A stretch of 64,000 nucleotides of DNA, from NCBI RefSeq assembly GCF_038025025.1, contig NW_027117344.1:310001-374000 (forward strand), written 5' to 3'. The notes beneath the pieces are model-generated. The model made no database searches, had not been told where the DNA came from, and saw only the letters and a list, made by a program, of their open reading frames with translations. This document shows, piece after piece, positions 19,039 through 60,945 of this stretch. A program made the translations under genes and the position numbers. Numbering within the stretch: position 1 is the stretch's first letter; each line of letters opens with the position of its first letter. Source of the DNA: Phyllosticta citribraziliensis. Its lineage: Eukaryota.

Positions 19039-20001
19039 ATGGACGGCAAGAACTCGGCCGGCAGACGCATCTCGCTGCTCAACGAAGACTCGCGCATGCC
19101 CTCGCTCGAGCCCTCGACCTACCGCTCGCGCACCTCCAGCTACGCCTCTTCGCCCTGCCTCTCGCCTCAGACCCCGCAGCTGCTGCGCTCAGACTCGACC
19201 GACTCGACAGCCATGATCAACATGCCCTCGCCCGTGACTCCTACCTATCCGTACGAAGAGGCCGGCCACTCGCCTCGTCCTCCACCGGGCACCATGCCCT
19301 ACTTTGCCATTTCCCAACAGCACATGGTCGGTTACCACCAACCAAAGGGCGCCATGATGCCCTTTGTGCCGCCGCCCCAACCGTACGCCAACCACGTCTT
19401 CGTCAGACCTCCCGGTATCGAGCGCCAACCAATGCCGCCGGCCAACCCAAAGACCAAGAAGAACCAGTACCCCTGCCCTCTGGCCAAGGCTTTTGGCTGC
19501 AATGACTACTTCACCACCTCTGGCCACGCCGCACGGCACGCAAAGAAGCACACGGGCAAAAAGGACGCCATCTGCCCCGACTGCAAAAAGGCTTTTACGC
19601 GCAAGGACAACATGGAGCAGCACAGACGCACCCACTCAAACGGCCGCAACGCCCGCTCCGCGGGCCCCAAGGATGCCGACGACGCACGCAAGAAGATGAA
19701 ACCAACGGCAACCCGGCCGAAGCCATCCCCGATCCAGTCTTCGCTACCCCCAACAACTAGCTCCTCCCTCGTCGATCCTTCTCTGCCTGTCAGCCCCGCC
19801 TCGAGTAGTTATGGCGTCGCGCCTGCGGTGCAGCCCGCCGACGACTACGTCGTGTCGCCCTATGCCGAGTCCGAGTCTGCTTCCGCCTACCCTCCTCCGG
19901 AGCCCTTCCAGGTCAACCCTCAGTCAGGGTCTGATGACGCTTTCCGGTTGCACACTCTGGCATTTGCCGCATCCGGCGAGAAGCGCAAGTTTGAGGCTTA
20001 G
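19039..20001 (+). CDS. C2H2 zinc-finger transcription factor, Nrg1-like, 320 aa, intronless
   Basis: Two fingers: CPLAKAFGCNDYFTTSGHAARHAKKH-TGKK-CPDCKKAFTRKDNMEQHRRTH. The TTSGH.ARH and R.DN..QH recognition helices resemble yeast Nrg1. ATG context CACCACCATGG. Confidence 0.85.
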   Translation: MDGKNSAGRRISLLNEDSRMPSLEPSTYRSRTSSYASSPCLSPQTPQLLRSDSTDSTAMINMPSPVTPTYPYEEAGHSPRPPPGTMPYFAISQQHMVGYHQPKGAMMPFVPPPQPYANHVFVRPPGIERQPMPPANPKTKKNQYPCPLAKAFGCNDYFTTSGHAARHAKKHTGKKDAICPDCKKAFTRKDNMEQHRRTHSNGRNARSAGPKDADDARKKMKPTATRPKPSPIQSSLPPTTSSSLVDPSLPVSPASSSYGVAPAVQPADDYVVSPYAESESASAYPPPEPFQVNPQSGSDDAFRLHTLAFAASGEKRKFEA

Positions 20002-40621: not shown

Positions 40622-42299
40622 ATGAAGGCGTTTGCCGGCAGCGCCGTCGGCGCGCGGGTTGGAGGGTTTGCCCGCGGTTCACGGCCGGCTTCATCACAAA
40701 TTTCAGCTTATACCCGGGCTGCGTCTCGTCGACAGCTATCCTCTGCCGTCTCCTCATCGCAGCGTCCTAGCTTGTCACGCCAATCTCCAATTCCTTCCTC
40801 GATACCCTTTCTCCGATCCCACCTCGAGCCACAAGACATCCTCCTACGATCATCTGCCCTCTACGCAAGACACTTCCATGCAGGCTCTCAACTGAGCCAA
40901 GAGCAAAAAACAAAGGAGTCAGCCTCGTCATCTGAAGAGAGCGCCAAGGCGGAAGATCCAAAGGACGAGAAGAAGGAGAGCTCCGAGGGTGGCGAGAAGA
41001 AAGCCGAGGGCGAAGGCGAGGGCGAAGGCGAAGAGTCAGATAAGAAGAAGAAGGACGATGCTCCTCCACCTCCACCTCCGCCACATGGCGACAAGACGCC
41101 CTGGCAGGTCTTCACGGAAACTCTCAAGACCGAATTCAAGGCCTCGAAGGAGTGGAACGATTCGACAAAGCAACTTGCCGCTGGCGTCGAAGACTTTACT
41201 CAAAACGAGAACGTTAAGCGTGCCCGCACGGCCTACTCCAAGGCTACCGAAACCGCCTCCAGCACGACTGCAAAGGTCCTGAAGACTACGGGATCTGCGA
41301 TTGGACAAAGTGCGGCATGGACGTGGGACACTGTTCCCGTCAAGGTCATTCGCAAAGGTGCGAATGCTACGGGCAAGGGTCTGGAGAAGATCACCAGGCC
41401 TGTGAGGGAAACTGAGGCATACAAGAACGTCAAAGACGTGATCGATGACGGAAGCTCTTCAAGATACGGTGGATGGGTGGAGAAGGAGGAGAGACGGAAG
41501 AAGAGGGAAGAGCGTGAGCGCAAGAGCGGAAATCCAAGGACGTTGGAGAAGATGGAGGAAGATCCCGAGTGCGTATCTCTGAGTCTGGTCGAAGTTGGGA
41601 CAATGGAGCTAACTGGATAACAGTGCGGGAACCAACGTCACCCTCCACAAGGATGCTGCCTGGAAAGAATCCTGGCGGGACTTCCGTGAAAACAGCCGTC
41701 TTATGCAATCCGTCTTCGCCATGAAGTCCACGTACCGCGATTCCGAGAACCCTCTGATCAGCACCGCCCGCTCCATTTCCGACAGCATCGCTGGTTTCTT
41801 TGCCGAGAACGAGACGGCAATGGTCATCAAGAAGTTCAAGGAAATGGACCCTACCTTCCAGCTTGAGCCTTTCCTGACGGAGATGCGCGAGTACATTCTT
41901 CCTGAAGTCTTGGATGCTTACGTCAAGGGCGACATTGAGGTCCTCAAGCTCTGGCTGAGCGCGGCTCAGTACCAAGTTTACGCTGCTCTGATGCAGCAAT
42001 ACACCACCGCTGGCATGAAGTCGGACGGCCGAATTCTCGACATCCGCAACGTAGAGATCTTGAATGCACGCCTGCTGGACCCGGGTGAGATTCCTGTTTT
42101 CATCGTCACCTGCAGGACTCAAGAAGTCCACACTTTCAAGAACGCCAAGACGGGCGAGCTTGCTGCTGGCATGGAGGACAAGGTCCAGCAAGTCACGTAT
42201 GCCATTGGTGTCACGAGGATCCCGGAGGATGTGAACAACCCCGAGACCCGCGGATGGCGGTTGATTGAGCTTCAGAAGAGCGCCAGGGAGTACATCTAA
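40622..42299 (+). CDS. TIM44: Mitochondrial import inner membrane translocase subunit Tim44
   Basis: Presequence; HGDKTPWQVFTETL, SSRYGGW, ESENPLIST-like block, FFAENETA, DPTFQLEPFL.EMREYILPEVLDAY, CRTQEVH. Intron 41569-41623. Confidence 0.95.
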
Positions 42300-43148
42300 G
42301 CATGCAAGCGGGCCGAAAACAACTCCGTGGTTTCTCTCTATTCCTGCTTCTCGACGAGGCCGACGCCGAGCCATTTCAGCGACTCTGCTCTTCTTCTCTG
42401 CTCAAATTCGAATCTAGGTGCTTTATGACGCCTCTCGACCCGAGTTGGCGTCCTGTGTCGGCGACGAAGCATTTTTCCGGCGTATGAAAAACAAAAGTCG
42501 TTTGTACCATATACCAAGCGCCCCTTCTTCTTTTTCACGTTTCCTGCGGCCGGTATAGACGTGTGGACGGATTTCATTCAATGTTATGATGGCGCAGGAA
42601 AAGCGCTCCACTCACCCCACTCATGTACAGTATTACTGGTTGGACTTTTGGACTTTTTCGCCGTAGGGGGGACTTGGTCCTTGCGGAAAGGTGGCACTTT
42701 GATGAGTAATTACCTTTGAAAGTCTCATGTTCATGATGTGTCGTTCTCTCGCTTTTTGCACTGTACTCTGGAAGCTCCACGTTCAATGTATACTGACCCT
42801 TCTCTTGTAGAATCCAAAACGCAGCTCCGCAGACAGACAAGCCTTTGTTCATGATGTGGGCTACAAGATACCTCTCCTCGGACAAGGAATGCCGGGAAAG
42901 AGATTTTCGACACCTGGGTCCCAGTCTATTCCGTGGGCATTGCTGCTGTTAGTGAACGACCCTGGATGACGTACAGTGCGGGGCCCCGCAGCCGAGTCGG
43001 CAAGCCGAACGGGTAGATCGGCATCTTTGTCCCAACACCTCACCTTCAACACCCGTTGACAGCAAGGATTACATCCATATCAATCTCTCTTGAAATTGGC
43101 CATGCCTTTCCTGCAGTACCCTCTCTCCGACCATCTCAATCGACCTCC

Positions 43149-44801
43149 ATGATGACACTCCCATCAAGTTGCGCCGTCTTGGTTGTCGGAACCGGCAACG
43201 CCGGTCTGAGCGCCGCCATCTCTGCTGCTAAACATTTACACTCCACACTTCCCTCTTCAGAAAAGCAACGTATTCTCGTCATCGACAAGTGTCCGGCCAC
43301 ATGGGCTGGTGGCAACACGTACTTCACTGCAGGCGCGTACCGCACTGCGCACGCGGGCCTCGAAGCGCTGCTGCCCATCGTCAACAACGTGGCACACTCT
43401 TCGAAGAAGATTATTCCCAGACACAATGCATCCTCAAGTGCCTCCACCGTCCCACCAGATGCTTCCCAGATTGACCTGCCTCCTTACTCTGCAGGAGCTT
43501 TTCATGCAGACCTCATGCGGGTAACGCAGGGCCGCTGCGACCAAGATCTCGCCCGCATACTCGTCTCAGACAGCTGGCCCGCAGTCTGGTGGCTCGAAGA
43601 CCTCGGCGTGCACTTCCAGCTCAGCTATAACCGCCAAGCCTATCTCGTCGACGGCCGCCACAAGTTCTGGGGCGGGCTGGCCTTGAAAACGGAGGATGGA
43701 GGAAAGGGACTGGTGCAGGACCTCCTGGGCGCGGCGGAGAGACACGGCGTCGAAATCGTGTACGAAGCCGCGCTGCAACGGTTGGTGAAGGATGAGAAAA
43801 CCGGCGCTGTGTTAGGCGCTGTCGTCAGGTTCGAGGGCCGCGATGTCCTCGTTAACGCGGGCGCCGTCATTCTCGCCGCCGGTGGGTTCGAAGCAAATCC
43901 GCGCATGCGAGCGCAGTACCTCGGGCCTGGATGGGACCTCGCCCTCGTACGGGGGACGCCCTACAACACCGGCGAAGGCCTCGAAATCGCCATGCGCGAC
44001 GCGGACGCGAAGCAGGCCGGCAACTGGTCTGGCTGCCATTCGGTGGCATGGGACGCACACGCGCCGCCTAATGGCGGCGACCGCGCCGTTACGAACGAGT
44101 TCACCAAGTCGGGGTATCCGCTGGGCATCATGGTGAACGTCGAAGGCAAGCGGTTCGTGGACGAAGGCGTTGATTTTAGAAACTACACGTACGCTCGGTT
44201 TGGCAGGGCGATTTTGAACCAGCCCGGGGGCGTGGCGTTCCAGGTCTGGGATGCTAGGACTTCTGCGTTGTTGAGAGGTGAAGAGTATCGGGATGAGGTT
44301 GTCAAGAAGATCACGTCAGGCTCGCGGGAGGAGTTGGCGGCGAAATGTCAGGAAGACGGCTTATCCAGCATCGACAGCTTTTTGCGGACGGTAGAACGCT
44401 ACAACGACGCGGTGTACGCTCACCGCAAGACTCACCCGCATCTCTCATTCAACCCCGCTGTCAAGGACGGCCTATCTACCCGACCAGGCGCTCTGGACAT
44501 TCCAAAATCGAACTGGGCGCTCCCGTTAGACAAACCGCCTTTCCTGGCTGTCAAGGTCGGCTGTGGAATTACCTTCACGTTTGGTGGGTTGTCAGTGGAC
44601 CCAGAGACGGCGGCCGTCATCTCGACCGCGGAATCAAAGCCCATGGAGGGTCTTTACGCCATTGGTGAGATGCTCGGTGGTCTCTACTACGGCAACTATC
44701 CGGGCGGCAGCGGATTGACCGCTGGCACTGTCTGGGGGAGAAGAGCTGGGGAAGACGCGGCTCGTAGGGCGGTCAAGAAATCTACTGGAGCGAAACTTTG
44801 A
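43149..44801 (+). CDS. FAD-dependent oxidoreductase, TcuA/CobZ (tricarballylate dehydrogenase)-like, intronless
   Basis: VLVVGTGNAGLSAA, AGGNTYFTAGA, KFWGGL, LAAGGFEAN..MRAQYLGPGWD.A.VRGTPYNTG, RFVDEGVDFRNYTYA.FG, GITFTFGGL, GLYYGNYPGGSGLTAG. Confidence 0.88.
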   Translation: MMTLPSSCAVLVVGTGNAGLSAAISAAKHLHSTLPSSEKQRILVIDKCPATWAGGNTYFTAGAYRTAHAGLEALLPIVNNVAHSSKKIIPRHNASSSASTVPPDASQIDLPPYSAGAFHADLMRVTQGRCDQDLARILVSDSWPAVWWLEDLGVHFQLSYNRQAYLVDGRHKFWGGLALKTEDGGKGLVQDLLGAAERHGVEIVYEAALQRLVKDEKTGAVLGAVVRFEGRDVLVNAGAVILAAGGFEANPRMRAQYLGPGWDLALVRGTPYNTGEGLEIAMRDADAKQAGNWSGCHSVAWDAHAPPNGGDRAVTNEFTKSGYPLGIMVNVEGKRFVDEGVDFRNYTYARFGRAILNQPGGVAFQVWDARTSALLRGEEYRDEVVKKITSGSREELAAKCQEDGLSSIDSFLRTVERYNDAVYAHRKTHPHLSFNPAVKDGLSTRPGALDIPKSNWALPLDKPPFLAVKVGCGITFTFGGLSVDPETAAVISTAESKPMEGLYAIGEMLGGLYYGNYPGGSGLTAGTVWGRRAGEDAARRAVKKSTGAKL

Positions 44802-45302
44802 AGAAGACGAGGGTAGTGAGACCAATCTTTCATTTTCGCAGTGTATAGTCGAAGAACTCGTCAGCCTGGTGCCGCGGTTTGGTCTATCACATGGATAGCG
44901 AACCCCGAGTCTCGCTCCCTTTGTTGATGCCAGGTCCTCTCGTTTCCTTGTGTAAACGGCGAACATCAACCTTGCCACCCGCCTCCCCTCTCCCTGGCCA
45001 CAATACAGAAGTCCTTGCTTCAACTTTACCGAGGGTCAACTAGGATTACAGGAGAATCGACAAGTATGAACAGTGGTATCGCAGATCATCGTCCTTCGTT
45101 CCATGGAAATTTGAAATGGAAGGCAGAAGCATCCGTTAACTGGCCGAATACTGAATACCTCTCTACCTCCTTCCGACCCGTTCGGTGTCCAATTCGGTCC
45201 CAGCGTTTCCAATCGATCCTGAAAGGCGGTCGCAGCCACAACGTCCCCAGAAGCCAAGTACTCCCTTTCCTTGACCTTCCCGTGGATGATCAAATCTGCG
45301 CC

Positions 45303-45732
45303 CTACTGAGGATTGGAAGAAACTCCCTTCGCAGGACCTGGGCCAAGTTCCGGCGTGGAATTCTTCAGCCACGGTCGGATTGTCCCATTGTAATGGGCCA
45401 TTATGGCTTCTTCGTCAAAAGGCTCTGAGACGGATCATCAGTTGCTGCCGGCAACAACAAAAGCGGAAAGAGCGGGAGGAAAGTTACTCGCCTTCTTCCG
45501 TCTCGTCCGTCGGAAGTGTGGTCTCGTTGCTGGGCCTCTCGGTCGCGTTGTCGCTTTTCTTTGCAAGGTCCTTTGGAGGTTCCTTCGGCTCGTCGGCGGG
45601 TTTCTTGGTGAGAAGCTCGAGCACGATCAAATCGGCGATTGCTGGAATCTTGTCGCAGACGGCGAAGATTGCTTTGTTCAGGCGCTGGCGGTCTATGCTC
45701 GAGATGAGTACCCTCGTCTTTCGAGAATTCAT
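45303..45732 (-). CDS. Truncated member of the local zinc-finger family (N-terminal helical domain only)
   Basis: LISSIDRQRLNKAIFAVCDKIPAIADLIVLELL matches the family N-terminus. Unspliced stop at 45484. A possible GC-AG intron 45491-45425 would extend it to TAG at 45305-45303. No Cys/His domain. Confidence 0.5.
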
Positions 45733-46173
45733 GGTGGGATGAGGAAGGTGGTTTGAGAATCGAGCAGTGAGAATCCCGGAAGCAAGAGTTCTTCTTGCTG
45801 TGATGCAGTTTAAGACAGGATTTTGGTCGTATTTACATAAACACAGGATCCTGCGTTGGTTGATGCGTCAGCAAGGAGTTTGCACAAGCGTTGTGCTCAT
45901 GTTCAGCGTTCCATGGTCGATTCTGGTGCTTATCCAAGGCTCACGGGGACATAGGAAGGGATACATGAAGATGGTTTGGGGTGGGTCCAAAATCAACGCC
46001 TCTTTGAATTAGAAAGGACAACCCATCTCCTTTCACGATTTGCTGTGGTTGAGGACCATTTACGACACCTTCCTTCATCTTCTTCACAAGCCAGCTTCGA
46101 CTCTCATCTTTCCGAATGGGTGGGGAAAGCCATGGTCGACCGCCGCAGATTCACTAGCCCCACATGTATCTCT

Positions 46174-46700
46174 TCACAGCCTCCGGCCGGAATTTGTTTT
46201 CTCTTCATGCCATCCAGTTTTACAGCCCTCTGAGTCGGCTTGTCCTTCGCAGCAACTCCACACGAAACCTTCAGGGAAGTTGACTTTGTTCTCTTCATCG
46301 TCAATGGGACCGTGGCAGTCCTCGTCATGGTCGGCCCAGAAATCATCGTCAGTGGGCTCAAGCTCCTCTGCGATGCCTGCGTTAGCCGCCGCGAAATTGA
46401 CCGATTCCCTGGTATCTTACCATCGTGGTATTTGCAGGCGGTTTTTGAGTTCTGCGTCACATCGAACTCTTCGCGACATAGAGAGCAGACTGCATATCTC
46501 GGACGCTTCTTGCCTCGCGGGGGCGCACTCTCTTTCTGGTTTTTGGTGGTAGATTCATCGCTGTCGGACGTTTCCGTCAAAAGCTGCTTTGAGACGAGGG
46601 CCTTAGAGACTTCCGACTCTTGACAGATATTTATAAGCACTGTCTGCAGCCGTTCCAGATCTGCGGTGTTGATTGCTCGAGTCAAGACGTCGCCCGACAT
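46174..46700 (-). CDS. Uncharacterised fungal Cys/His zinc-finger protein (family copy A, intact)
   Basis: AINTADLERLQTVLINICQES; RYAVCSLCREEFDVTQN..ACKYHD; intron 46420-46368; FWADHDEDCHGPID..FPEGFVWSCC...GC.TGWH. Confidence 0.85.
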
Positions 46701-46966
46701 GGTGAGAACAGAGCCCGAGTTGGGGGGAAATGGCGTGGAAGACGGTCGAATCTTCAGCTGGAAATAGTTTTGAAATTCGGGCCCGACTCTCAAGCTTCAG
46801 GTTTCGACTACCTAGTGGGAGAAAGGAGAAAAGACGCGAATTTCTGAAAGACGTGTCGTAGACGCGGCGACGCGTTGAGTGTCGGGATTGTCCGGGCAAC
46901 TTTAAAGTGGAGCACAGAACGCCTATCAGCGAACAGGCGGCTCTGTACTACCCCTGCCACTGGAGC

Positions 46967-48200
46967 TCAGTCGCCGTCCAAAAGCTTCCGCCCAAAGATC
47001 CAAAGAGCACTGCAAAGTCTTCATCAACAAGATGCTGAGGTTTTGGCAAGTCTTGCAAGTCTGGCAAGTCGCAACATCTCTCCATTCGCCATCCCTCATC
47101 GCTGAGCCCCCCCGTTTCTCACCACCCCTCGGTGGACGTCTTATCGAACGATTTAGGCATCCAAATCAAGTCCTCGCACTAGTCCCGCCTGGTGGTAATT
47201 AATTGACATTAATAGGACACCCACCAGGCCGTGCGTGTGGTGTTCTACAAAATCTACACGCGAGATACAAGTCATGTTCTCTCACTGCTACTCCTATATA
47301 GTCACCATACAAAACTATGGGGACAACAAGTAAATTCTTAGTTAAGAAATTTTTAATGCCTTAAGAGGTACCAGAGCATAGGAAACCACTAAATTTATAT
47401 GAGAAAACATGCCCTATAGATGTATAGGTACTTAGAGTTACATTGCTATATTTTAAATTAGGCTGTAAGTGAGTTAGTAAATGCCTAATAAAATACTACT
47501 TGAAAGACCCACCGCCACTCTACGCCACCTTGTATGGCCTAGTAGGTGTCCTATTTAAGTCAATTAATCACCACCAGGCGGGACTAGTGTGAGGACTTGA
47601 TTTAGACGCCTAAATTATTTAATAAGATGTCTACTACAGGGTGGTAGTGATTAGCGGCGCTCATTGCTGATTTATACTAATCTGCTGCCCTTAGCCTCTC
47701 TTAGAGCTTCTTTAATAATTAGGGGGATAAGGTCCCTTGTCGAATCTATAAAGGAATTATTAAGGTGATGAGTATAAAAAGTTGGTAAAAAAGCTCTAAT
47801 TGTCTGAATGTAAGTGGAGAGTAGAAGTAGTAGAGGAAGATGCGGAAAGAGACGCGTTGCTTGCAATTTGACTTTATAACATTTCTATCTGGGCTGCTGC
47901 ACAGAGTAGGGGTCATGCCATATAGCAGTTTATAACTGCCTAAGCTGTCCAGCTCGCAAATGGGTCCTGTTATCTTTTCTGCCCGCAGGCGCCGTTTCGG
48001 TAAGGTTCTTATTAATCTTGTCTCACAGTTTTGAACAACTCTTGACTCAGGGGCACTAATAGCCCACATCTCTACAATAAGGTTAGGAAGACACATTTAT
48101 ATTCCAACTGTATCTGCTTCAGCCGTTGAACTGGCCAAGATACTTGTCTGAACTAGAGGCTGTCCCCATTTTATCTTTTAAATCTTGATTATCATGGGCC
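46967..48200 (-). pseudogene. Degenerate unidentified gene interrupted by the MITE
   Basis: Removing the element and one target-site copy joins ...IIKEALREAKGSRLV*ISDEGWRMERCCDLPD...GGSFLDGD* in one frame. Many stops upstream and AT-rich. 5' limit uncertain. Confidence 0.4.
47106..47660. mobile_element. Non-autonomous Mutator-like (MULE) MITE, ~555 bp
   Basis: ~130 bp inverted repeats at ~47106-47242 and ~47523-47660 share AAATCAAGTCCTCRCACTAGTCCCGCCTGGTGGTRATTAATTGAC. Flanking direct repeat TCATCGCTGA (47096-47105) / TCATTGCTGA (47661-47670). AT-rich non-coding interior. Confidence 0.85.
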
Positions 48201-48239
48201 CCCTACAACATCTAATAAGCAAACGAGGTTTGACGCAGC

Positions 48240-48858
48240 CTTTCTCGCGGCTATTAATGTGCGCCTAGGTCTGGTAGCCCTTCTAGTCTGCAGGCCTTTC
48301 GCAACAGTCCCAGTAGAATCCTTTGGGGTGCTTTTCGAAATTCTCCTTGGTCGTCATATGTCTGGGATTGCTTCCTTGTCAACAGTATTGTTTCCAGTAC
48401 AGCTGTTCATAGTCGATTTTACCTGTTAGATTAAATAAGCGGTAGTTCTGCATAGCCAGGCCAATCGTACCGATGTGATAGTGACAGGCTTCCTTGTTGT
48501 TTTATATGACATCACATTCTTTACGGCAGGTATAGCAGATTGTGTATCGCTCTGTCTTCCTACTCAAGTTAGGAGTTCCAGGTGATGCAACTTCCGCCGA
48601 CGCTTCTTGAGCTTGTGTCGTTTCTTCTAGTGCTGAGTCCGACGACTCTGTCTCCGAAAGTTCTGCGTCCGACCCCCATAGAGAGTTGAGATACTTGCTG
48701 TAGGGTTTCGAAACTTCTAACTTGTTGACCACGAACCAAGATTCAACGTAGCTATGTGTTTCTGGGTGTTCATTATACATGTGAACAACCATCTCCCTGA
48801 GCTGTTCTTGGTCGGCCTTATTTAAGGGTTCTTGAAGGATAGGAGGGAAGCGATCCAT
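48240..48858 (-). pseudogene. RIP-inactivated copy of the zinc-finger family (copy B)
   Basis: PLNKADQEQLREMV..RYTICYTCRKECDVI*NNKEACHYHIG; intron 48470-48423; ..HPKGFYWDCCERPAD*KGYQT*AH. Frame intact but stops at 48504, 48381, 48285 and 48267, and a conserved Cys is Tyr. Confidence 0.85.
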
Positions 48859-49338
48859 TTCAGGGTGGTTCTACGTCGATTTTGGCTTTGCAGTTTGGAG
48901 GAATGATTCAGGAAAGATGCCTTGAACGAGTCTGCAACTTAAAGATGCGAGACGCTTAGGTATAGACTGCAGGCGGGGAAGACGCGTTTAAAACTTCCGA
49001 GCCTGCTGATCGTGGGGCAGACCCATTGCTCGTGTCGCGTACTTTAACCACCAGTTGGACAGGGTTCATGGTGATCATGTCATAGTAGATGGTAGACGAC
49101 AGAAGCGGTGAGTCCTGCAACTCTGCAAGCACGTCAATAAAGACCGGCTCGATATTCAAATTGCAAGAAGCTCATACATTTCTGCGTCTTACTCCAACAG
49201 TGCTTTGACATGCGCTTGACTGAGTCGTTCAAACCAAGCAGAACAAAGTCGGACAGAAATTGTGTGAGAAGGGACTCAACAAGGAGAAACAAACCACAGC
49301 GCTCACCCACCGCCTCCGCCCTTGCAGATGCACCACAT

Positions 49339-50545
49339 TCACCTGCAGCATCTGAAACAACGAAGAATGCAACAACCTCCGGCCGACGTTCGAAGTTGGA
49401 GCGCACTATAACTGACTGCATTGGGCCAGGCGCAGTAGTAGTAGTAGCAGCACCCACACCGACAAGAAGCGCGGTCGGGTTGCACGCGCCTCGACGTGAT
49501 GCTGTAAGCCTGACCGCTCCACCGCCCAAACGGTGCCTTTTGCGGCAGAGACAGGTCCGACGCATCCGTGTTCCTGTGCTTGCAAGGGTTAGAGGGGAAG
49601 TCATGCAGCGCGTCTTCTCCGTGGCCGCGTAGCAATGAAGTGGTGCTCTCTTCTCCCTCTGTTTGGTAATCTGCAGGCGCGGTTCTATTGGCAGAGTTCC
49701 TTGTTAGCATGGGTGCATTTCGTGTACGAACTTTTATCGCGCTCTAAGGATTCGATGCTTTCAGGTGGGGAAGAGGGCCATTCGCTTTGGACGTCGTCGG
49801 TGTCGTCGGTTGTCGATTCTGTACACAGAGGCGACGATGAATATTCCGTACTCCCTTCGTCGGAACTCTCGATCTCTGACCCCTCGACCTCAGATTCGCT
49901 GCTGTCGTCGTCAACGGCGTGTTGTGAAGAGTCACTGCTCGAGTCGCTGCCCAGATCACTGGCGGAGGACACGCGTCGGTCAAGCTCTTCTCCATTCTTC
50001 CGTTGATTCACCAACTCTTCGAAAATGTCATTCGTGAGGCAAGAAGCCGTCATTCCATGACCCTGGTCGACATCAAAGAGGTCCCAGCGCACAATGGCCC
50101 TTGTCATTGAAAGGTAGGCATCTTTCAACATCTTTATCGCGTGCCGAGTTTGGTCTGCTTTGTTTGACAAGTCATCCTCATCGGGGTCCGGTTGCGTGTC
50201 TCCTGCTTCTGTCTCGTCGTCCGATAAAACGTCATCTTCAGAGGAGGTAGAATTGTACCCTGAATCACCAGATTCCGACACGTCGTCTACGTTCTCATGA
50301 TCAAGATTTTCTTGTAACCTCGTTCTCATGGCTTCGGAAGCAACGTTTTGAAACACGATGAGCGCTTTTGCGTGGAGTATCTCCAGACGCTGCTCGTCCC
50401 CGCGCTTGAAGTACGAGATGAACAGCTTTGACATGCCGACCAGTTTGTACCAGTCACCAAGCCATCGATCCATGTAGCGATACAGGACGGTCTCGACCGG
50501 CAATTCGTTCTGTCACATTTCTTCCATTTCCGCCTGAGTCAACAT
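49339..50545 (-). pseudogene. Acidic Ser/Asp/Glu-rich hypothetical gene with an early in-frame TGA
   Basis: ATG 50545 gives MLTQAEMEEM*QNELPVETVLY.. in frame with ORF 49685-50503. A plausible short intron ~49726-49685 (GTACAC..GCTAAC..TAG) joins ORF 49339-49710. Confidence 0.45.
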
Positions 50546-51002
50546 GATGGTGAAGTGCGGCTGTGAGAGCAGGAACAGCTTCGCGATAATGGTCAAGGTA
50601 CTAGGATTGAAGGACCGCGAACGCAACGCGTAAGACAAGCGACGCGTGGGCTAGCGCGTATCGAAAGAAATTGCGGAAGCGAAGAAACTCGAAGGCAACG
50701 AGGCGTGCAGAAGCGAGGGGATTCGAGTTTCGGATGTGGCCAAGAAAGCGATTGACGCGGGACGGAGACGATCCAATCGATGCAGCTCGACAGTTTGACA
50801 CTGTTGTTTTGGAAGCGTTGCTCTACGCCGTGGAGTTTTTGCAGATTGGACAACAGTTCCAGCTTCGGACCGAATACATTGCCCAATTGGGAAGGGTAAA
50901 AGGTCTCCTTCACTGCGACGTCTTGGTGCTGCCACAGAGATCTAGCGGTCCAGAATCTCGAATCCCGGTTACGCACTGCTAAGAGATCGCATGGTGGTCG
51001 TC

Positions 51003-51495
51003 TTAAAATTTCGAGCCCAACTTTTGAGAATTGCCTGCCCAAGCTTCGGAGTCGGCCTCATGATAGTCAGCTGTGCAACCTTTTGACTCTCCATCTTGAC
51101 CACAGCAAGTCCACTCGAATCCTTCTGGGTATATGCCTCTCATGTAGGGAGTGTCGACGTCCAAGTCCGTATCGTCCCAGAACCCGCAGTACCAATTTGG
51201 TGCAAGTTGACCTGGCGAACGTAAGCCTGTGCTTCATCATTCTCCTTGAACTTGAGCTACCGGTATGCCGAAGACAGGTCTTGGCGTTGAAGTGTCTGGA
51301 GTCGAATCGTCCATCACATTTCCTGCAGACTGCGCACACAACGGGTTCGAGAGTGTCTGGTACGGCAACAATCGGGACGATGGGTGCCTTGTTTCCATTC
51401 GAAGGAATTTGGCCTTTGGCGCGCTGACAACGGAGACAAGAGAACCGCTTGACAAATGCGTCGCACTTGCTCAACAAGTTTTTGAATTTCAACAT
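51003..51495 (-). CDS. Zinc-finger family copy C (C-terminal domain intact; N-terminus degenerate, start uncertain)
   Basis: AVCRKCDGRFDSRHFNAKTCLRHTG; intron 51260-51212; FWDDTDLDVDTPYMRGIYPEGFEWTCCGQDGESKGCTADYH. Confidence 0.7.
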
Positions 51496-52548
51496 GGGCT
51501 GAGAGACGTTAAGAGAGACGGCATTAGGGTCGCAATCGGGAGCTAGGCTCAAAGACGACAGTGTCGACAGTTCGTTCCCGTCTTTATGACTTCCACAAAC
51601 TCCCTGTGGTCTGTATGCACACACGGTTGTGTATTAAGCGAGACTATTGTTTCCCACTCGGAGCTCTCGATTGAGATGTCACAATCCTTTGTGTCTATCC
51701 AAGTTTTGGCTGCGATCCTGTCTTTCTCTGGCCTCGGAAGCTCTAAATTACATGCCGGCACAGAACCTTATCTGCAGGAATGTATGCGTTGAATGTTCGA
51801 GGAGGATCAGCGGAGGAAATGCGCGCTCCCTGAACGGATCGTGGACAAACCGTGGGCGAACAGGTCGAGCGCAGTTGCGCAGCAAACCCACTGATAAAGT
51901 AGCAGAGAATGGCAGCGCCTAGTTTGCTACTTCCCATGTTTAGACACTCTGACATGAGCCAGCATCACATGCGAGGAATGTACAACGTTGTACCAAAAAA
52001 GCCCATGGTAATTCCCAATCTGGTCACACGTTTGGTTGTTGATGATAGAAGCAGCAAGGTTGACGGTTTCTTGGTCCCCTGGCAGCTGATAAGCAGTGTA
52101 AGACAATGATCTGCTGCAAAAGTTTTGGATAAGTCTCGGGCCTTGCCGCGTTGACTTTGCGCGTGAAAGAGTACAAGGATTTCTTTGGTTTTTCAATCTT
52201 CCTTCTGCCGATCAGGTCGCGACTCCAATCACCTCTCTCGAATCCATCTGGACCTCAACTGACCAGCCTCATTTCGAACAAGACCGCTGTTGCGATCCAC
52301 CAGTTTTCTTGGTGCTAGGATCTTGGAGTCAGCAGGACCACAAATCCACATTCGAGCCAAGGAAAAATTCCCAGTTCGCCGCTTTTGCAATCGCCAAGCC
52401 TGATTAAACGCCATAATCCAATGCAGTCATCCCGGGTCATTGCTTTGGTGTGCAACGTACGGCATCGGAGGGGTCGTAAGGTGATTGGAATGTAAAAAGC
52501 ATTCCGCCGTTCCCGTTGCGCTCCTCTCGCGAAGCCCTTGCGCGAGCC

Positions 52549-53139
52549 TCATGAATCTACTCTCAGTTTCTTGCAGGACACATCGCGTGCGGTGTGTGGT
52601 CCTCTCCGACAGGCTGGCGAGTCGCCACGACAACCGCAGCCACTCCATACCCAACCGTTTGGATTTTCCTGCCGATGACGCTCTCTGTCGACAAGTCCGA
52701 AAGTGTCTTCGCAGTGATCGTCCCAGAGTTCGTTTTCAATGTCGGCTTCGAGGTATCCTATGCTATTGTCAGCGCGTTTCCGCCACGGTTGCACCATGTC
52801 AAGCTAACCCTCGTGCCACGTGCAATCGCCATGATTATTATGCAACGTCTCGAATTCCTTTCCGCATGTTCCACAAATCGAATAACGGATAAACGGTCTT
52901 TTGTTCGGCGAACTGGCCTTCCTGCCCATGGGTGGCGCGATGGAGATGACGGCTGGAGCGACCTGGTGCGCCTCGTACCCAAAGGGAACATCTTCGCTGC
53001 TGCTCCTAGAATCAACCAGCAACTCGATGCCAACAAGGTCGCGCGCAATCGCTGATCTCTCGCAAATGTTCTTCAGGGTAAGGCGAAGCCTGTCAGGGTC
53101 GGCGTAATCGATGGCCTCCATGAGCGAACGGGACGTCAT
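52549..53139 (-). CDS. Zinc-finger family copy D (intact)
   Basis: AIDYADPDRLRLTLKNICERS..LL; RYSICGTCGKEFETLHN..DCTWHEG; intron 52808-52758; LWDDHCEDTFG..NPNGWVWSGCGCRGDSPACRRGPH. Confidence 0.85.
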
Positions 53140-54614
53140 GGCGGGAAGATGATAAGAATGCCGGGTAGGAAGGAGCGTAAGTCGGAGCGGTCAAGGAGCC
53201 GAGAATGAGGGGCGATGAATAGAAGGATGTGATGGCAGCGTCTTGCTAGTTTCCAGCTGGACGCAGACCTGTTTGTCGGTGGTGGATTAGAGACGAAGTT
53301 GTTCCGTAGGTGCCTGGGCGTTCTGAAACGCACTCATATATGTGAAAGCCGGCAGGGCGACTGGCGTCAATTGTGAGCCATAGTACCAGACGTGTCTGCA
53401 CTGTGGCTTGGACGCTGCGAGAGGGCGGCGGTGTCAGTGGAGGGGTTGGTAAAGTCCGAAGCCGCTGTTGAGCGGAGGCCGACTGGACTTTGGGGGAGAC
53501 GCGCCATCACGCTACTAATGATCGACGCTGGGATCTCTCGCTTACCACTTTAAACTCAACGACCTTCCTTGGTTCCCCTCTCATCACTTCAACAACACGG
53601 GACACATGTCGCGATTGCTGCACTTCTACTTCCCATGCTTCGGCTACGAACTTCAACACGCTGGCTTTCACCAACCTTCGAGCTGCGTCCTGCAATTCAA
53701 CATCCCAACAACGAAAACACATTTTCTATTATGCACTGTGTCCCATGGCGGAGAGCCTTTCATCCTCTCAACATGACTTTGAGCTTGCAATGGGTCGAAG
53801 TCCCCAGACTGCTCAGATTCAACATTACCGTATCGAGGACTGACCCGAGCCTGAGTCCTCCGCAGCACCTCCGACAGCCAAGGAGAAGCCATCCCTGTCT
53901 AGCAGCACCTGCCAGCTCCAGCTTGCCGTCATACCTAAGCTTATCACCAACGCACATGAATTGCAGGGAAGACCCCAATGCGACATCACTACACGTTCCA
54001 TCAGTGAACCGGCCACCAGGCAGCTACCTGCACCGAATTCGTGTCGCGACAGTCGCAAAATATTCTTCCGCGGCTACAAGTCCACTTGAAATGCGTACCA
54101 ACCTTCTCGGCTCTACCTGAATATCTCTGCCGAGCCACTATGTTTCAAATCGATCAATCCGATCACCCTAACCAGTACTCCAAACGTTACCATTGATATC
54201 CTTGCCAATGGCTCAGATAGATGGACAGTCGGATACTCATCCTTCCTCCAAGCGTTCGTCGACACTGATGCTTTCCATTTTTGAGCGTCTTAACAAGAGA
54301 TTTGTGAAGAAAGCGGACATCCACGCTTGCTTTTACGGTGTTGTCAAGTCGGCCTGGTGCTCAAAATTCAACATGTCACTTCTCGCGTTCAGAAACAGTG
54401 CGATTCTGGGGATTGAGACAACAATCTACCTACGGCTCGGCCCCCTAGTTGTCTACTTGATGTCTTGCAGTCTCCCGAAATCAAGGTCTGCTCCCCTGCG
54501 AAGGCCTTGGCGCCGGTGTGTTGGTCGTCGATATACCTAAGTTCTCCTCTTCAAGTTCCTCTTGTACATCCACTTTCGTCATTATTCTTACCTCTTCTCA
54601 AATCACCCTTCACA

Positions 54615-55833
54615 ATGGCGGACTCCAAGCAAACTGAACCGGCCAAGAAGGACCCGAAGAACGACATTAACAATGTGCCCTATGAAGCTCCCCTGAATTT
54701 CGACCTGCCTCCCATCGAATGGATCGCGGCCAAGAACTATCGGGGGATGAACGACAACAGCACAGTTTCGATTCCAACAGCCGACCTGTCCGGAAAATGG
54801 GTCATCATCAGCGGTTCCAACAGCGGCATTGGGCGTGAAGCGGCTCTCACGATGGCCTCCTGGGGTGCCAACATTATCCTCGCCTGCCGGGAACCACGTC
54901 CAACCGAGGAGCATCCTGAAAGCGTGGCCGCCACATGCATCCAGGCTGCACGAGACGCCGGGTACGAAAAATCGGAAGTTGAATATTGGCAAATCGACAT
55001 GGCAGACCTCGAGACTGTGGACAAGTTCGCCCAGCGTTGGCTTGACACTGGACGACCGCTCGACATTCTCTGCAATAATGCTGGTATCGGGGACAACCCA
55101 GGCGGTCACGAGATGATCAGAACCAAAGATGGGCTCGAGATTTTCCATCAGGCAAGTCTTGACTGAGTTTGTGTGTTGTAACTCCTTCACTAACGCCGAA
55201 TCATAGGTCAACTTCCTCTCTCACGTCTTGCTTACTCTTCGTCTGCTCCCAGCGATTGCCAAGGCGACTGCACCCCGCATCATTTGCACGACGAGCTGCT
55301 TCCACTACCTGGGCACCTTCAATCTTGAAGACTGCAACGGCGACATCGGCATGTGCGGGCCCTCGGGCATCCTCTACTACCGAAACAATAAGCTTTTCAT
55401 GCAAATCTGGCAAGCGGAGCTGCAGCGTCGGCTACTTCAACACGAGCAGTATAAGCACATCACCGTCCAAGGCGTGCACCCCGGCTACGTCTTCTCGGGC
55501 CTGTGGAATATGAACTATGCCTCGTTCATGCGCCCAATCAAGCAACTGTTGCTCAAATACTACGTCTGGAGGTACGGCATTTCGCAGCAGCAGGGCGGGC
55601 TGGCGCTTGTCAACGCGGCGACTGCCCCGGAGGCTGGACCGGACCCGAAGGTTCAGGGCGTCGGACAAGAGGGCGGGAGAGGCGGTGGGAGGTATTGGCA
55701 TCGCATCTGGGAGGACGAGCCGATGCCGCACATCCTCGACCCGGATTGTCGGTGTCGCCTATGGAGGAAGGTCAATGACGAGCTGAATTTGAAGGAGAAG
55801 GGTCTGTTGGATGTTTTGGGCGTTGAGATGTAA
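54615..55833 (+). CDS. Short-chain dehydrogenase/reductase (retinol-DH/WWOX-like)
   Basis: DLSGKWVIISGSNSGIGREAA, LDILCNNAGI, KDGLEIFHQ|VNFLSH across GC-AG intron 55152-55206, YxxxK (YRNNK), VHPGYV. Confidence 0.92.
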
Positions 55834-56335
55834 GAAAACTTTGTTCTTCTGGCTGACTTGCACGAGGCTCGTCTGCGCTGGGCCCGACTGCGCTGTGCCG
55901 CGGCTGTCAGATTGCAAGCTATTTTCCCTAGGAGTTCGGATGGGAACCGAAAACAGATTGAACTTAACACGAACAAAATTGTGCAATGAACTTGTGGCAA
56001 CAGTCTTCATGAACAACATCTAAGGCAGCGCCTCTATCTCGTCATCGTTAAATCTTGATGCCTATAGACCACGTTGCTGCCTCTGCCGCAAATCTAGGCT
56101 CCGAAAGAAAGCCACGCACAACCAAGTTCGAGTGAGTCAACAGGTATCCCATCTGGTTCAGAAGAACAGAGTGAGTTAAGCTGGACGACGTTCACAGATC
56201 ACAAAGTTGACCCGGCAGCGCACACTCCTTTTAACTTTCTGCCTTTACTCATGAATTCCAGCCGGCGCAATGTGGACAAGTGAGAAGACTGACGGAATTG
56301 TCAATATAAATACTAGAATATCCACGCAAGGGGCA

Positions 56336-56408
56336 CATCCGCATGAAGGGAGCGTCCGCGTGAAGGGAGCGTCTGAGTGATGGGAGCATCCGAGTGGTGG
56401 GAACGTCC
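56336..56408 (+). repeat. 17-bp minisatellite, about 4.3 copies, upstream of the HET gene
   Basis: CATCCGCATGAAGGGAG / CGTCCGCGTGAAGGGAG / CGTCTGAGTGATGGGAG / CATCCGAGTGGTGGGAA / CGTCC. Confidence 0.85.
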
Positions 56409-56645
56409 ATGCACAAGAAGCAATCGCTAGGCCTTCTTGCTGACAGTTACCTTTTCAGGGGCAGCGGCTCAAGGTGTGATGTGATAGGCCCTCGCTATCC
56501 CACGTCAGGGGTGATAGAGGTGGGGGCGAAAACCGCACGTGGCCGCAATGTCAGCAATGCTAGTGGGCTGGTTTTCCATCAGCCTCAGCGACTTCTCATC
56601 CACTTCGTGTCCTCGACTTTACAGCTGCCATTTCCCTATCACAAC

Positions 56646-58556
56646 ATGGTCGGCTGTGGACCGGTACTGAACTGTCAACATGCCTATGCTCACAATAGGC
56701 AGCACTCGTTCACTCAATCTGCTCGCTCATCATTGCTTGCTATTGATCCTCCCACTCGCCCACCCGGATCCCCAAGACCAGCTTTTGAGAATCCTCCCTC
56801 TTATCAACCTCTGATCAACTGGAAGGCTTTGATATCATTCTTGAATGAGGACACATCGCCACCTAAACTGGATCCGCTACCCCAGGGATTTCGCCTCATT
56901 GATGTCGAACACCAGAATGTGGTTCGAATCCGAACACCGCGAGACTACAGCTGTCTGAGTTACGTCTGGGGCGACGTCAGTGGATTTCAGGCGGCAACCG
57001 CAAATATTGAGATGCTCTCAAAGGCTGGGGCACTTGACGACCCAGGATTACCAGCAACAATCCGAGATGCAATGATTGCGTGTCGCAGATTGGGCCAAAG
57101 GTACCTCTGGGTGGATCGGTTATGCATTCTTCAAGATGACCCCGACGGCACAAAGCAGATTCATATCGACGAAATGGGTCGTATCTACAGCCATGCATTC
57201 GTCACCCTTATAGCTCACGAAGGTGCAGATGCAGGGCATGGTCTACGTGGCGTCTCTGACCATTTCGTGCTAAGTTCTTGGAACGGTCAGAGAAACTCGT
57301 TCAAGGAGACGAAATGGGAGAATCGCGGCTGGACGTACCAGGAGGCTATGCTCTCTCGCCGACTCATCTATTTCATCGCTGAAGATGCCATATTTGACGG
57401 CAAAGGTCCAAATTCTCACTCGGCGAAGCCGAGTTATCTTCCCAATGCCGCCTTCCATCGAGATCCCGGTTACCACAAGCTTACTTATCGCCAGGCTGTT
57501 TACGTGTATACCGGGCGGGAACTCAGTGACGAGAACGATATCCTGAAAGCCTTCGCTGGTGTTTTCTGTCATTTGTTTGGCCAATATCATAAGTTCGGTC
57601 TTCCCACAAATGCCTTTGATGAAGCAATCGCATGGTGCCCGATCGGCACTTCAAGAAAACGTCGCAAGAGCTTCCCAAGCTGGTCTTGGGCGTCGGTGAC
57701 AGGGAAATCAACCTTTAATCCAAATCCAACCATTTCTGTCGCATCTTGGGCTTTCGTCGATTCTGACCAGCACGAAAACATATCCATGACATGGCCCAGG
57801 CCTTCAGACTTCTCTTTCGAGATACAATACCGTACTCCGTTGGGTTGGGTTTCACCATTTCACTTGCGGCGTTTTCAAATTCCTACTGCAGTTGAATCTT
57901 GCAGACACGGCTGCATGCTAACGACACCGCCCGGACTCGAAGTTGCCGATATGGATTGGACTTCCCTAGGTTTCCGATCCGCTTTCAAGAGAAGATGGCC
58001 CTCGAATAAGAGTTTCTGGGAAGCTTGCCGAGGTATGGAACCAGGCCAAACGCAGCCCTTGCACTTGAGATTGTTTTCTGAACACCAAAAACGACTTGCC
58101 CTGAGACATGGACGCATTCTGGTGCTCTCTCAAACTGCGAATCTCAGCGTCCAGCACTTTTTCGACGAAGGAGAAGACACAGACATAGAGCGTTATCGGA
58201 TACTTGATGGAACCGACGTGGTTGGTGCTGGTTTCTTCGATGTTCCACATGGCCGAGGAGAAGCTCCGGGCAAGATCCGCTTCTTGGCTCTTGCATGTGC
58301 CTTCGAAAAGAAGTTGACGATTTTGTCAGAGGGACGAAGTACAGCCTTCCCTGTAAATCTCGAGCGCAAATATGAGCAATTTGTTGACCAGATACCTGGA
58401 AGTTTCTACATCAACCGCGCAACGGCAGTCGTAAGAGTTCTAGCCATCGAGTCCGCCGAGAAAGATGGTGTACATCGTCGAATTGGTACTGGATTCATCG
58501 TCCTCAAAAGGTGGGCAGAACTACAGCCGATACACCGCACTTTTGTACTTGAGTAA
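56646..58556 (+). CDS. HET-domain (heterokaryon incompatibility, TOL-like) protein, intronless; start codon uncertain
   Basis: FRLIDV, YSCLSYVWG, LPATIRDAM..C..LG.RYLWVDRLCILQDD, MGRIYSHAFVTLIA, W.NRGWTYQE..LSRR, YTGRELS...DIL.AFAG, FPSWSWAS. Confidence 0.92.
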   Translation: MVGCGPVLNCQHAYAHNRQHSFTQSARSSLLAIDPPTRPPGSPRPAFENPPSYQPLINWKALISFLNEDTSPPKLDPLPQGFRLIDVEHQNVVRIRTPRDYSCLSYVWGDVSGFQAATANIEMLSKAGALDDPGLPATIRDAMIACRRLGQRYLWVDRLCILQDDPDGTKQIHIDEMGRIYSHAFVTLIAHEGADAGHGLRGVSDHFVLSSWNGQRNSFKETKWENRGWTYQEAMLSRRLIYFIAEDAIFDGKGPNSHSAKPSYLPNAAFHRDPGYHKLTYRQAVYVYTGRELSDENDILKAFAGVFCHLFGQYHKFGLPTNAFDEAIAWCPIGTSRKRRKSFPSWSWASVTGKSTFNPNPTISVASWAFVDSDQHENISMTWPRPSDFSFEIQYRTPLGWVSPFHLRRFQIPTAVESCRHGCMLTTPPGLEVADMDWTSLGFRSAFKRRWPSNKSFWEACRGMEPGQTQPLHLRLFSEHQKRLALRHGRILVLSQTANLSVQHFFDEGEDTDIERYRILDGTDVVGAGFFDVPHGRGEAPGKIRFLALACAFEKKLTILSEGRSTAFPVNLERKYEQFVDQIPGSFYINRATAVVRVLAIESAEKDGVHRRIGTGFIVLKRWAELQPIHRTFVLE

Positions 58557-58632
58557 CGCCGTTGGACACGGCAATCCCAAACTTGAGACCGCAAGTTGGT
58601 CAGTAAAAGTAGTAATACAGATCTGGGCTGCC

Positions 58633-60945
58633 TTAACCGTCAGTCAGCACCCTCGTCCAGTCAAACTTCCGCCACTTCTTCCTGAAGCCATCCACGCGCC
58701 TGTCATTCCTATGCCACCGGCCCTGCCTCTTGATGACATCCGGGCCCAAATCCAACATGCCACCGAGCAGCTCTCGCGCAAACAAGTCGCCCTTGGGCCA
58801 GCGGTTTGCATCTTCGACAATGTGGCCCAGCCCGCCATCCAGGTCAAACCAGGCGTGGAAGTAGGGCATCTGCTTGGCAATGCTGCGGCGGAAAGCCATG
58901 CGGCCCATGCCCTCGCGAGCCTTTTGCTGCGTGTTGATCAGCTTCTTGTGCTGTGTCCACTCCTCATCGGCCGCGAGAATGGCTTCGCGGAAGAAGGCTG
59001 GCGCTGTTTCGCCGAGGGAGTATGGGATGGGGACGGCCATCATGGCTGCGTGTCGCTTGCGTTCTGGCGTTGCTGCATTTTCGTAAAAGACCACGTCGCG
59101 GCCCTGGTCGTGGTACATGCGAGTGAGGGATTTCATAAAATTCTACCGTCATTGTCAGGAGTATTCGAATAGCTTGACTGACATGACTTACCCGTATTTC
59201 CTCCCATTCATCGTCATCGCACTCCAAGAGGTTGAAGCGATGCTGGATAGGAACGATGCACGCACCGCCTTCGCTAATCTCTGGCTCAGTGGGCAGCGTC
59301 AAGAAGACTCTGGTACCAAGAGAGACTACAGGAGCCACGGGTGGCGTTTCCGAGTCTTCGTGGTGACAGAGCGGACAACTGTCCAGAATGCGATTCATCT
59401 TTTGGAAATCTTCGATGGCGACATTCCGGAGGTTAACGCCTGACTTTTGAACGTGCTTGGCAAGCTTGTTGGCGTTTTCATCCATGTAATCCAAGTCGTC
59501 TGTGAACTTGGTGTCTTTTGCAATGCGTTCAGCCAGCCGGTAGCCCTCTCCTCCCGTTTGTCCTTTGGTCCTCTTTTCTTGTCGGACCATGTCCTCGATG
59601 CTCATATCTTCGTTTTCCTTGACCAGACCTCTTTCCCTGCCCCTCTTATTGGTAAGCTCTGTGACTTCGCCCTTCCTGCTGGCTAGAAGACGATTTTCGG
59701 CGGCACCCAGCACAACGACTTCTGGCTCCTTGCGGTTGGCGGCAGCAGCAATGGCCTCATTGTACTCAGCTTCAATAGAAGCGGCTTCTGGTGCTCCTCT
59801 GAGCTTCGCCTTCATCATCTTGGCCTTGAGCTTGTTGAGAGCTGTCTGATCCAATACAGCAGTTGTAGCAGGGGCCGGCTTTTCCTCCATGATTTGTCCT
59901 TGAGGCAGATCTGGTGCATCTTGGTCTTCTTCTTCATGAGCGCTGCGCCTTCGAATCCCAGCATTAAGTTTTCGCTCTTGGAAGAGCTCTCCGCTAGGTT
60001 TCTCCTTTCCAACGTAGTCTGGTCCATACATTTTGCGCCGATCAAGCTCATTTTCTTCTTCTCGAGCGTCATCAAAGTCTCTCAGACTTCCAAACCTATC
60101 CGAGGCAACTTCATCAACTGGACGGCCAGATTCCTTGGCTTCCCGGTACACATTCTTGAGCTTCGACATTCGCCATTGAGAGCCATTGTCACCAAAAGTG
60201 TAGCTGACTTCATGCTGCGCAGGCTCATCCTCCGGGACATGTTCCTCGACACCCTCTTCGAGATCCCGCAGGTGCTGGTTGAGTTCTTTTTCATGAATCT
60301 TCAGCTCGAAGTCTTTCTTTGTAGCCTTATTGTCCGGCTCGGGCTCTTTCCTCCTATTAACGTAATCCACATCCAAAGCGGAGGGAGCTTCCATCCACGA
60401 GTCGCGCTTTAAGTCTGCACCTTCAACACTAGGCTTGTCGACGGCATCCTCTGTTGGTTTGTCCCCATCGCCCTGTTCTGCCCAACGCGCGTATTCTTCA
60501 TCCTCGTCCGCAGCCGGCGACTTGGATCGGTCTTTTTCACTGCGGTGGCGTCTAGAGGAGCGATTCTCACGGTCGCGCTCGTCATCCCGGGAATGTCTCG
60601 AAGATCGATGTCTGCTCTCCTTGTGTCGCGAGGATCGGTGTTCATGCTCAAGATCGTCGTCCCTCTCGCGCCGGGAGCGCTTATGCCTATGGCTCGATTC
60701 GTCTTCGTCTTCTCTCGAGCGATGGTGCCTGGAAGAGTGATGGTGGTGGCGATGACTCCTCTCATCATCCTGTTGCAAGTCAGCGTGTGCTACACAGAAC
60801 AATCCAGCTGGGTTGGAGGGTTGGTGACGAATTGAATTACCTTGTCGCGGCGCTCTCTATCGCGGCTGCGGCTGCGGTGCCTCTTTTTCTGCGATTCTTG
60901 TGCCTTGCTCTCGGCGAGCTCACGCTCAAAATCTTCGAGAGCCAT
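58633..60945 (-). CDS. cwf19: Cwf19/CwfJ-family pre-mRNA splicing factor (CWF19L2-like)
   Basis: R/S/H-rich N-terminus; TFGDNGSQWRMSKL, CPLCHHED, IVPIQHR..LECDDDEWEEIRNFMKSL, FYENAA, EEWTQH, PYFHAWF..GGLGHIVE, FDWT. Introns 60840-60770 and 59191-59143. Confidence 0.92.

Follow-up and report, generated by a model that had tools for sequence, protein, structure and literature searches.

The closest described counterparts of the genes treated here are proteins with CHORD zinc domains (PF04968). The second CHORD of RAR1 (CHORD-II) spaces its zinc ligands as x4, x13, x2, x14, x15, x4 and contacts Hsp90 via Phe187, His188, Asp189, Trp194, Phe204, Phe207 and Met208 (PMC2935968). A single CHORD domain serves a non-Hsp90 role in Rex3 (PMC12129344), and Cut8/Sts1 is described as dimerising through a three-helix domain (PMC10808114). 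We examined an array of small genes, each built, where complete, of a three-helix module and a zinc domain, within a 64,000-nucleotide stretch of Phyllosticta citribraziliensis (RefSeq assembly GCF_038025025.1, contig NW_027117344.1, positions 310,001 to 374,000 of the forward strand; the whole stretch is called the window). An earlier sequence-only reading had taken it for an uncharacterised zinc-finger family near a HET-domain gene. The array is real, and it contains a previously undescribed variant of CHORD with one notably conserved derived paralogue.

Five copies, A to E, start on the minus strand exactly where that reading had placed them:

45484..45732, minus strand: copy E, 82-codon frame with the N-terminal three-helix module only; probable remnant
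46174..46700, minus strand: copy A, intact canonical member of 157 amino acids; exons 46700-46421 and 46367-46174; equals database protein P0001
48241..48858, minus strand: copy B, pseudogene carrying four stops, its intron at 48470-48423 still removed in one run
51003..51495, minus strand: copy C, open spliced frame of 147 codons with eroded N-terminal module and acidic loop; intron 51260-51212
52549..53139, minus strand: copy D, intact, 179 amino acids, altered ligand and loop motif; intron 52808-52758; equals database protein P0248

Using a family profile built from 148 fetched relatives, the zinc domains of D, A, B and C scored 118, 95, 71 and 57 bits; the reversed translations of the window that served as control gave no more than 2.7 bits. 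The phase-1 intron falls at the same codon in all four, one codon past the histidine of the C-x2-H motif, as had been claimed. A, B, C and D are clear paralogues, with pairwise identities of 25-39%, and E is a weak N-terminal remnant. The helix said to be shared at the N-terminus is less evident in two copies: B reaches 8.8 bits and E 6-7 bits, against 3.7 for the reversed control, and for E 2 of 1000 shuffles were equally good (hhalign P 0.0013). E is also absent as such from the protein collection; P0001 and P0248 are both labelled Phyllosticta citribraziliensis. The shared Cys/His pattern holds as a domain in the four copies but not in every residue, since the usual W-x-C-C of the family is replaced in D by W-S-G-C-G-C, without the first cysteine of the pair. 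As to the state of the copies, A and D are intact as proposed; B, described as killed by repeat-induced point mutation (RIP), carries stops at codons 119, 144, 176 and 182 and lacks the last cysteine of the ligand set; C, although N-terminally eroded, keeps an open frame and is not dead.

Searches of the whole genome with A and D found the family in this array only (one match at E 0.19 was not credited); all detectable copies of the family in this genome sit here. Three further candidates were rejected. A presumed exon-2 relic behind E was equalled by 337 and 612 of 1000 shuffles. For annotation P0258 of another assembly, which fuses A to E, no matching joint was present among those listed, and contigs of runs X1 and X3 are unspliced through the region. 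A weak profile match at 19525 is a C2H2 transcription factor.

The fold of the zinc domain was assessed on a model of A built from an 84-sequence alignment (predicted local distance difference test score, pLDDT, 85.5), which comprises three helices at residues 2-41 and the zinc domain at about 65-150, joined by a disordered linker with a basic patch at its end. The profile matches the CHP1 CHORD (2yrt) at E 4e-5. With Foldseek, the best two of 7 rows are CHORD domains (probability 1.00 and 0.99, E 0.011 and 0.035; no row at E of 0.001 or below), and with VIA, RAR1 CHORD-II (2xcm) is the sole row of 48,161 at Z of 5 or more (Z 5.4, root-mean-square deviation 3.6, 62 aligned residues). These searches bear out the CHORD/Btk resemblance suspected from the letters, and the modelled two-zinc domain has the CHORD fold. 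Its eight ligands follow the order typical of CHORD, C, C, C, H, C, C, C, H (six cysteines, two histidines), and each is kept in 81-84 of 84 sequences. In most of the 70 sequences of the 84 that could be parsed, the spacing is C-x2-C-x13-C-x2-H-x40-CC-x8-C-x4-H, so that x13, x2 and the final x4 are common to CHORD, whereas C-x2-C replaces C-x4-C and 40 rather than 14 residues, including an acidic loop, separate the His from the Cys pair. This loop, with the motif W-x-D-H-D-E-x-C-H-G, is 26 residues longer than that of RAR1 CHORD-II, and its residues W104, D106, D108, E109, H112 and G113 are kept in 80-83 of 84. Moreover, the domain stands singly behind the three-helix module, with no CS domain. 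The PF04968 cut-off of 24.6 bits is missed: 29 of 84 members match weakly (best E 0.0011), three members reach about 12-13 bits, and a PF04968 search of the genome does not recover the array.

Two other known systems share part of this organization. The Btk motif (PF00779) corresponds to the H...W-x-C-C...G-C half, and a 17-residue match to BTK superimposes at a deviation of about 1 (E 6), but the family has the long acidic insert and its fungal members add a second zinc site. Rex3/REXO1, which combines KIX, a single CHORD and a DEDD domain, likewise carries one CHORD-fold domain behind a helical module and outside the Hsp90 system; the present family, on the other hand, lacks an exonuclease domain, and its 41-residue module has no KIX match among the 50 matches listed.

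Outside this genome, a five-sequence profile recognised 315 homologues among 1433 candidates, and the matches, grouped at 50% identity, make up 1,314 clusters, of which 664 have E of 1e-10 or below. Named matches come from Xylaria, Fusarium, Trichoderma, Colletotrichum, Bipolaris, Parastagonospora, Elsinoe, Lasiodiplodia, Mollisia and lichen fungi. A precomputed PF26782 tag, named DUF8254 in the Atlas, is carried by 14 of 120 listed homologues and by 12% of one look-alike Atlas cluster, but not by A or by the cluster of D; two tagged proteins, P0003 and P0004, show no such match in the Pfam copy scanned, which does not include this model. The automatic UniRef label is C2H2-type zinc finger; no C2H2 Pfam family occurs among the 25 listed of 48 families over 84 members, and none for A. 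Literature searches, with supplements outside their reach, found nothing on DUF8254/PF26782 or on four orthologue locus tags. As far as these searches go, the family is undescribed, as the sequence-only reading had supposed, and it is widespread in ascomycetes with protist relatives. An Atlas search with the first 50 residues of D gave no usable match.

A second type, found in 30 of 245 fetched proteins with records that include Kipferlia and Bolivina, has two tandem zinc half-domains with the same acidic loop and without the CxxC half; the Btk-like half thus occurs alone, twice. Among such protist-type relatives, P0040, P0077, P0081, P0036 and L059:9134-9592 show two tandem Btk-like half-domains, several with I/V-D-L-T motifs and one with an HMG box. 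These motifs, which resemble SUMO-interaction motifs, are present in 21 of the 245 proteins, a count made without a control. A model of the protist type found no VIA match at Z of 2 or more, and Foldseek rows only at E above 6. Viral relatives were absent from 67 pattern matches, and of 34 pattern matches in prokaryote genomes a single 20-residue match was not credited. A giant-virus protein of 179 amino acids (BFVD A0A5J6VK23) matches the model at E 0.007 and probability 1.00.

Tandem copies are a habit of the family. Among 77 metagenome loci, 52 of them independent, separate same-strand copies occur in 5 of the 52, and 47 show one gene; where compared, the zinc domains of such copies share 33-63% identity. 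In two Fusarium species, family genes with adjacent locus tags belong to two old clades. The same pattern of decay is seen in another fungus (L057:6962-9784), where three copies lie on one strand, their scores falling and one of them interrupted by a stop. As for gene context, a family gene lies directly behind CAND1 in two independent loci (L022:6202-10573, L064:4769-10524) and directly before a Ulp1-type protease in L061; ubiquitin/SUMO genes (CAND1, E2, Ulp1, UBX) beside some outside loci were not used as evidence for any reading.

No sequencing run is recorded as RNA, and X1 and X3, which come from different studies (X1 may share its source with the genome), were judged to be RNA because they contain spliced joints; expression was not ranked by contig depth. 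The introns of A and D, with GT-AG ends, are skipped in RNA-like contigs of both runs, and those of B and C in X1 only. D has a further intron in its 5' leader, near 53331-53267, and both D introns are skipped in X1 and X3. A single X1 contig runs across B, an orphan gene X and C (48164-52540) with three introns removed, one of them upstream of B at 49177-49123; it represents overlapping or read-through transcripts, pseudogene B included. Run X4 derives from another organism; over A, the 5' portion of B and the last part of C its contigs agree at 90-93%. They join across the 3' part of E and, in one contig, across gene X (49909 to 50673), which indicates that the island varies and that gene X is absent in at least one relative. 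The low X4 cover over the HET gene and the 3' exon of B, where no contig joins, shows nothing.

The copies share their island with four other features:

47096..47670, strand not assigned: MITE-like (miniature inverted-repeat transposable) element with 135-nucleotide inverted arms and RIP-type mismatches between them
49685..50473, minus strand: orphan gene X, acidic, 262 amino acids, unrelated to the family, inside the array
54615..55833, plus strand: short-chain dehydrogenase gene (Pfam adh_short), between array and HET gene; a neighbour, not a family member
56646..58556, plus strand: HET-domain gene, 636 amino acids; a neighbour of the array

The element, which the sequence-only reading had recognised, is confirmed by its arms (47096-47230 and 47536-47670). 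A second copy with its own inverted arms lies on contig C5; only two copies of this family, with arms of about 140 nucleotides, were found in the genome (the second also at L020, about 1480-2120). Of the 30 mismatches between the arms, 21 are transitions and 19 of these fall at CpG or CpA, and the TpA/ApT ratio of the element is 1.36. That of B is 1.06, against 0.40-0.46 in A, C and D. Raised TpA/ApT, stops and a nearby repeat with C-to-T changes are thus all present for B. RIP needs high identity between repeats, and B is only 28-39% identical to its paralogues; the inverted repeat 570 bp away is therefore the likelier trigger, and RIP of B would have been set off by this element rather than by pairing with other copies. 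Gene X has no Pfam match, is single-copy in the genome and forms a one-member cluster. An Rfam scan of 42000-60000 gave no match.

The copies appear to have had very different histories. At the 90% level, a single cluster unites D with proteins from five Phyllosticta species, which share 92-99% identity with the copy studied here, whereas of four neighbouring genes in the collection (GTPase, flavoprotein, HET, orphan X) three cluster within this species only and one with one further species, a breadth that depends also on gene models. As a test for alleles of D, these 92-99% identities reach only so far, since 90% clusters cannot reveal alleles diverging beyond 90%. In the tree, the stem of D measures 1.98 and its crown at most 0.06, compared with branches of 0.51 for A, 2.45 for B and 2.35 for C; the branch of A is ordinary, and A itself is a typical member of the family. 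Accession numbers in five P. capitalensis assemblies place D at a distance of 11-13 from a paralogue that shares 47% identity with A, and this numbering suggests that at least two copies predate the species split. It is thus very probable, as judged from sequence comparison, that an A-like canonical gene was duplicated before the Phyllosticta species split and that the copies then took different fates: D would have changed fast, taken a new job and been frozen by purifying selection, while C drifts, E would have lost its zinc domain and B would have been mutated by RIP. The proposed birth and death therefore applies to B, C and E, which decay or drift, but not to D, which is older than the split of five species. 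The D copy of citrus-associated Phyllosticta, with its altered motif, is a testable candidate.

Collectively, the explanation that we favour, at a probability of roughly 0.55, is an old family of CHORD-fold proteins with local tandem duplication, differing copy fates and an adaptor function; the locus would be the home, in this genome, of this widespread family of small proteins. How such an adaptor might work can be proposed only tentatively, at somewhat less than even odds: a nuclear protein would pair via its N-terminal helices and bind a partner by the acidic zinc loop. The basic K-R-K patch, kept in 65-68 of 84, would import it into the nucleus; the three helices would form a homodimer resembling Cut8 or the D domains of F-box proteins; the two zinc domains would present the rigid acidic loop to a basic or repeated partner; and paralogues would diversify the loop, D having fixed a new version. 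With tandem half-domains, the protist type would likewise become two-handed, and the presence of these half-domains in the thirty relatives without the CxxC half is what would be expected if two copies must act together. Residues 11-40 of the A model have pLDDT 93-97. VIA ranks 3-8 include the beta-TrCP D domain, the SAS-5 dimer domain, Cut8 and L7/L12 dimer domains at Z 3.2-3.8 (Cut8-type 3.6); Pfam Cut8 matches one member at E 0.004, with another match at 0.051, and hhalign of the module to the Cut8 of this genome gives P 0.006. The three short helices with an L-x3-C core thus recall Cut8/Sts1 and the F-box D domains, in weak sequence and fold matches, but the six-helix proteasome-binding bundle of Cut8/Sts1 is absent and the similarity is below safe significance.

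Several points weigh against this reading. Every N-terminal fold match has Z below 4, a level that the fold tool calls a common arrangement, and with HMMER the Cut8 match amounts to only 0.4 bits, which 16 of 1000 shuffles reach; since such Z values lie within the noise for helices, the N-terminal dimer is only a weak lead. The nuclear location is predicted from a short basic motif. That A-D go back to one origin was neither recovered nor rejected (p value of the approximately unbiased test, p-AU, 0.126). For B, the RIP substrate index is borderline at 1.03, and its TpA/ApT is also reached by 9 others among 212 windows of 600 bp. Finally, only 1.3% of genome positions would bring a random 8-kb stretch to within 4 kb of a HET domain, and one family member, P0194 of Microdochium, is annotated as the C-terminal domain of a NACHT-ankyrin NOD-like receptor (NLR).

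Instead of binding a partner, the loop could form a third metal site or a small Asp/Glu/His/Cys active site, the protein being a metal sensor or hydrolase. D106, H107, D108, E109, C111 and H112 indeed lie within ten residues and are kept from fungi to the protist-type relatives, at about 50-60% local identity. On the other hand, H107 and C111 are variable (each kept in 74 of 84), copy D, although conserved throughout the genus, no longer has the C-H-G part, and no enzyme fold occurs among the Foldseek and VIA matches, so that we consider this function unlikely.

The CHORD fold itself suggests a second alternative, a co-chaperone of the RAR1/CHP1 type whose His-Asp loop would reach the nucleotide of Hsp90 and which might mature NLR or HET proteins. 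The Trp before the Cys pair, equivalent to Trp194 of RAR1, is kept in 79 of 84, the loop H-D-E (74, 80 and 81 of 84) recalls the His188-Asp189 described for RAR1 (PMC2935968), and dimerisation would mimic tandem CHORDs. However, the linker from the Cys pair to the next Cys is 8-9 residues in 70 of 70 parsed sequences instead of 15; with 8 residues, the segment of Phe204, Phe207 and Met208 that binds Hsp90 is missing. Furthermore, the longer His to Cys-Cys span places the H-D about 8 residues further out, any F-H-D/E occurs in only 8 of 84, the genome has a separate canonical two-CHORD gene, and single CHORD domains also act outside the Hsp90 system, as in Rex3 (PMC12129344). Of the contact set, the Trp is thus kept, the H-D is displaced and the Phe/Met segment is missing; judged by its residues, the family has the CHORD fold but lacks the features of Hsp90 co-chaperone CHORDs, and the co-chaperone role is improbable. 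Equally improbable is a wider proposal, that the family forms a third CHORD-fold class, from protists to filamentous fungi, whose tandem arrays spin off paralogues such as D to chaperone or guard NLR/HET proteins in a RAR1-like layer separate from CHP1.

The sequence-only reading had derived an allorecognition, immunity or drive role from clustering, rapid turnover and the HET gene nearby; in the first two cases the family would work with that gene as guard, decoy or partner. The HET gene is real (Pfam E 2e-27), but it starts 3.5 kb beyond D with the dehydrogenase gene between, in a genome of at least 29 HET domains. Another assembly of the species has the gene annotated as a 340-residue protein that lacks the HET domain (P0276, with 330 residues identical), through a difference either of strain or of gene model. 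The rarity of such proximity noted above, the strong divergence of the tandem copies, the P0194 model and one outside locus with HET 5 kb away (L051) all speak for such a link. Linkage was examined in 25 independent outside loci of at least 5 kb (339 kb, 118 frames of at least 230 residues, one locus of protist type). Tandem copies recur outside, but HET, present in 1 of 25 loci (L051) against 0.31 expected, does not, no NACHT or NB-ARC domain was found among the 118 frames, and ankyrin repeats occur in one locus; the sample is small and its contigs short, and a weak HET link therefore remains compatible with it. In addition, D is nearly invariant across species, and a single 90% cluster holds the Parastagonospora nodorum orthologue across 155 contig records. 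The 25 longer proteins scanned include three fusions, with a NACHT-ankyrin protein, a P450 and an HMG box respectively; the first, P0194, forms a one-member cluster and may be merged neighbouring gene models rather than a true fusion. Since HET genes gather with lineage-specific genes in Neurospora (PMC10684091), co-residence in a variable island is expected. The HET gene looks like such a co-resident, its proximity coincidental, and the data lend no support to a role in allorecognition, immunity or drive, the first two being slightly more doubtful than the co-chaperone role. A meiotic-drive cluster of killer and antidote, to which an island combining diverged tandem copies with RIP and a mobile element might point, is scarcely credible for copies confined to one locus, with D stable across the genus, in a family that is mostly an ordinary single-copy gene elsewhere.

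If the family did service NLR or HET proteins, it would supply a missing chaperone layer for fungal immunity; the linkage evidence gives no indication of this. What the locus brings to light is an unstudied CHORD-fold variant with a strongly conserved extra loop, spread across filamentous ascomycetes and some protists, which databases label C2H2-type in the face of no C2H2 match. Within a single locus it also sets the fates of duplicates side by side: A canonical, D probably changed and then frozen, C drifting, E truncated and B apparently killed by RIP.

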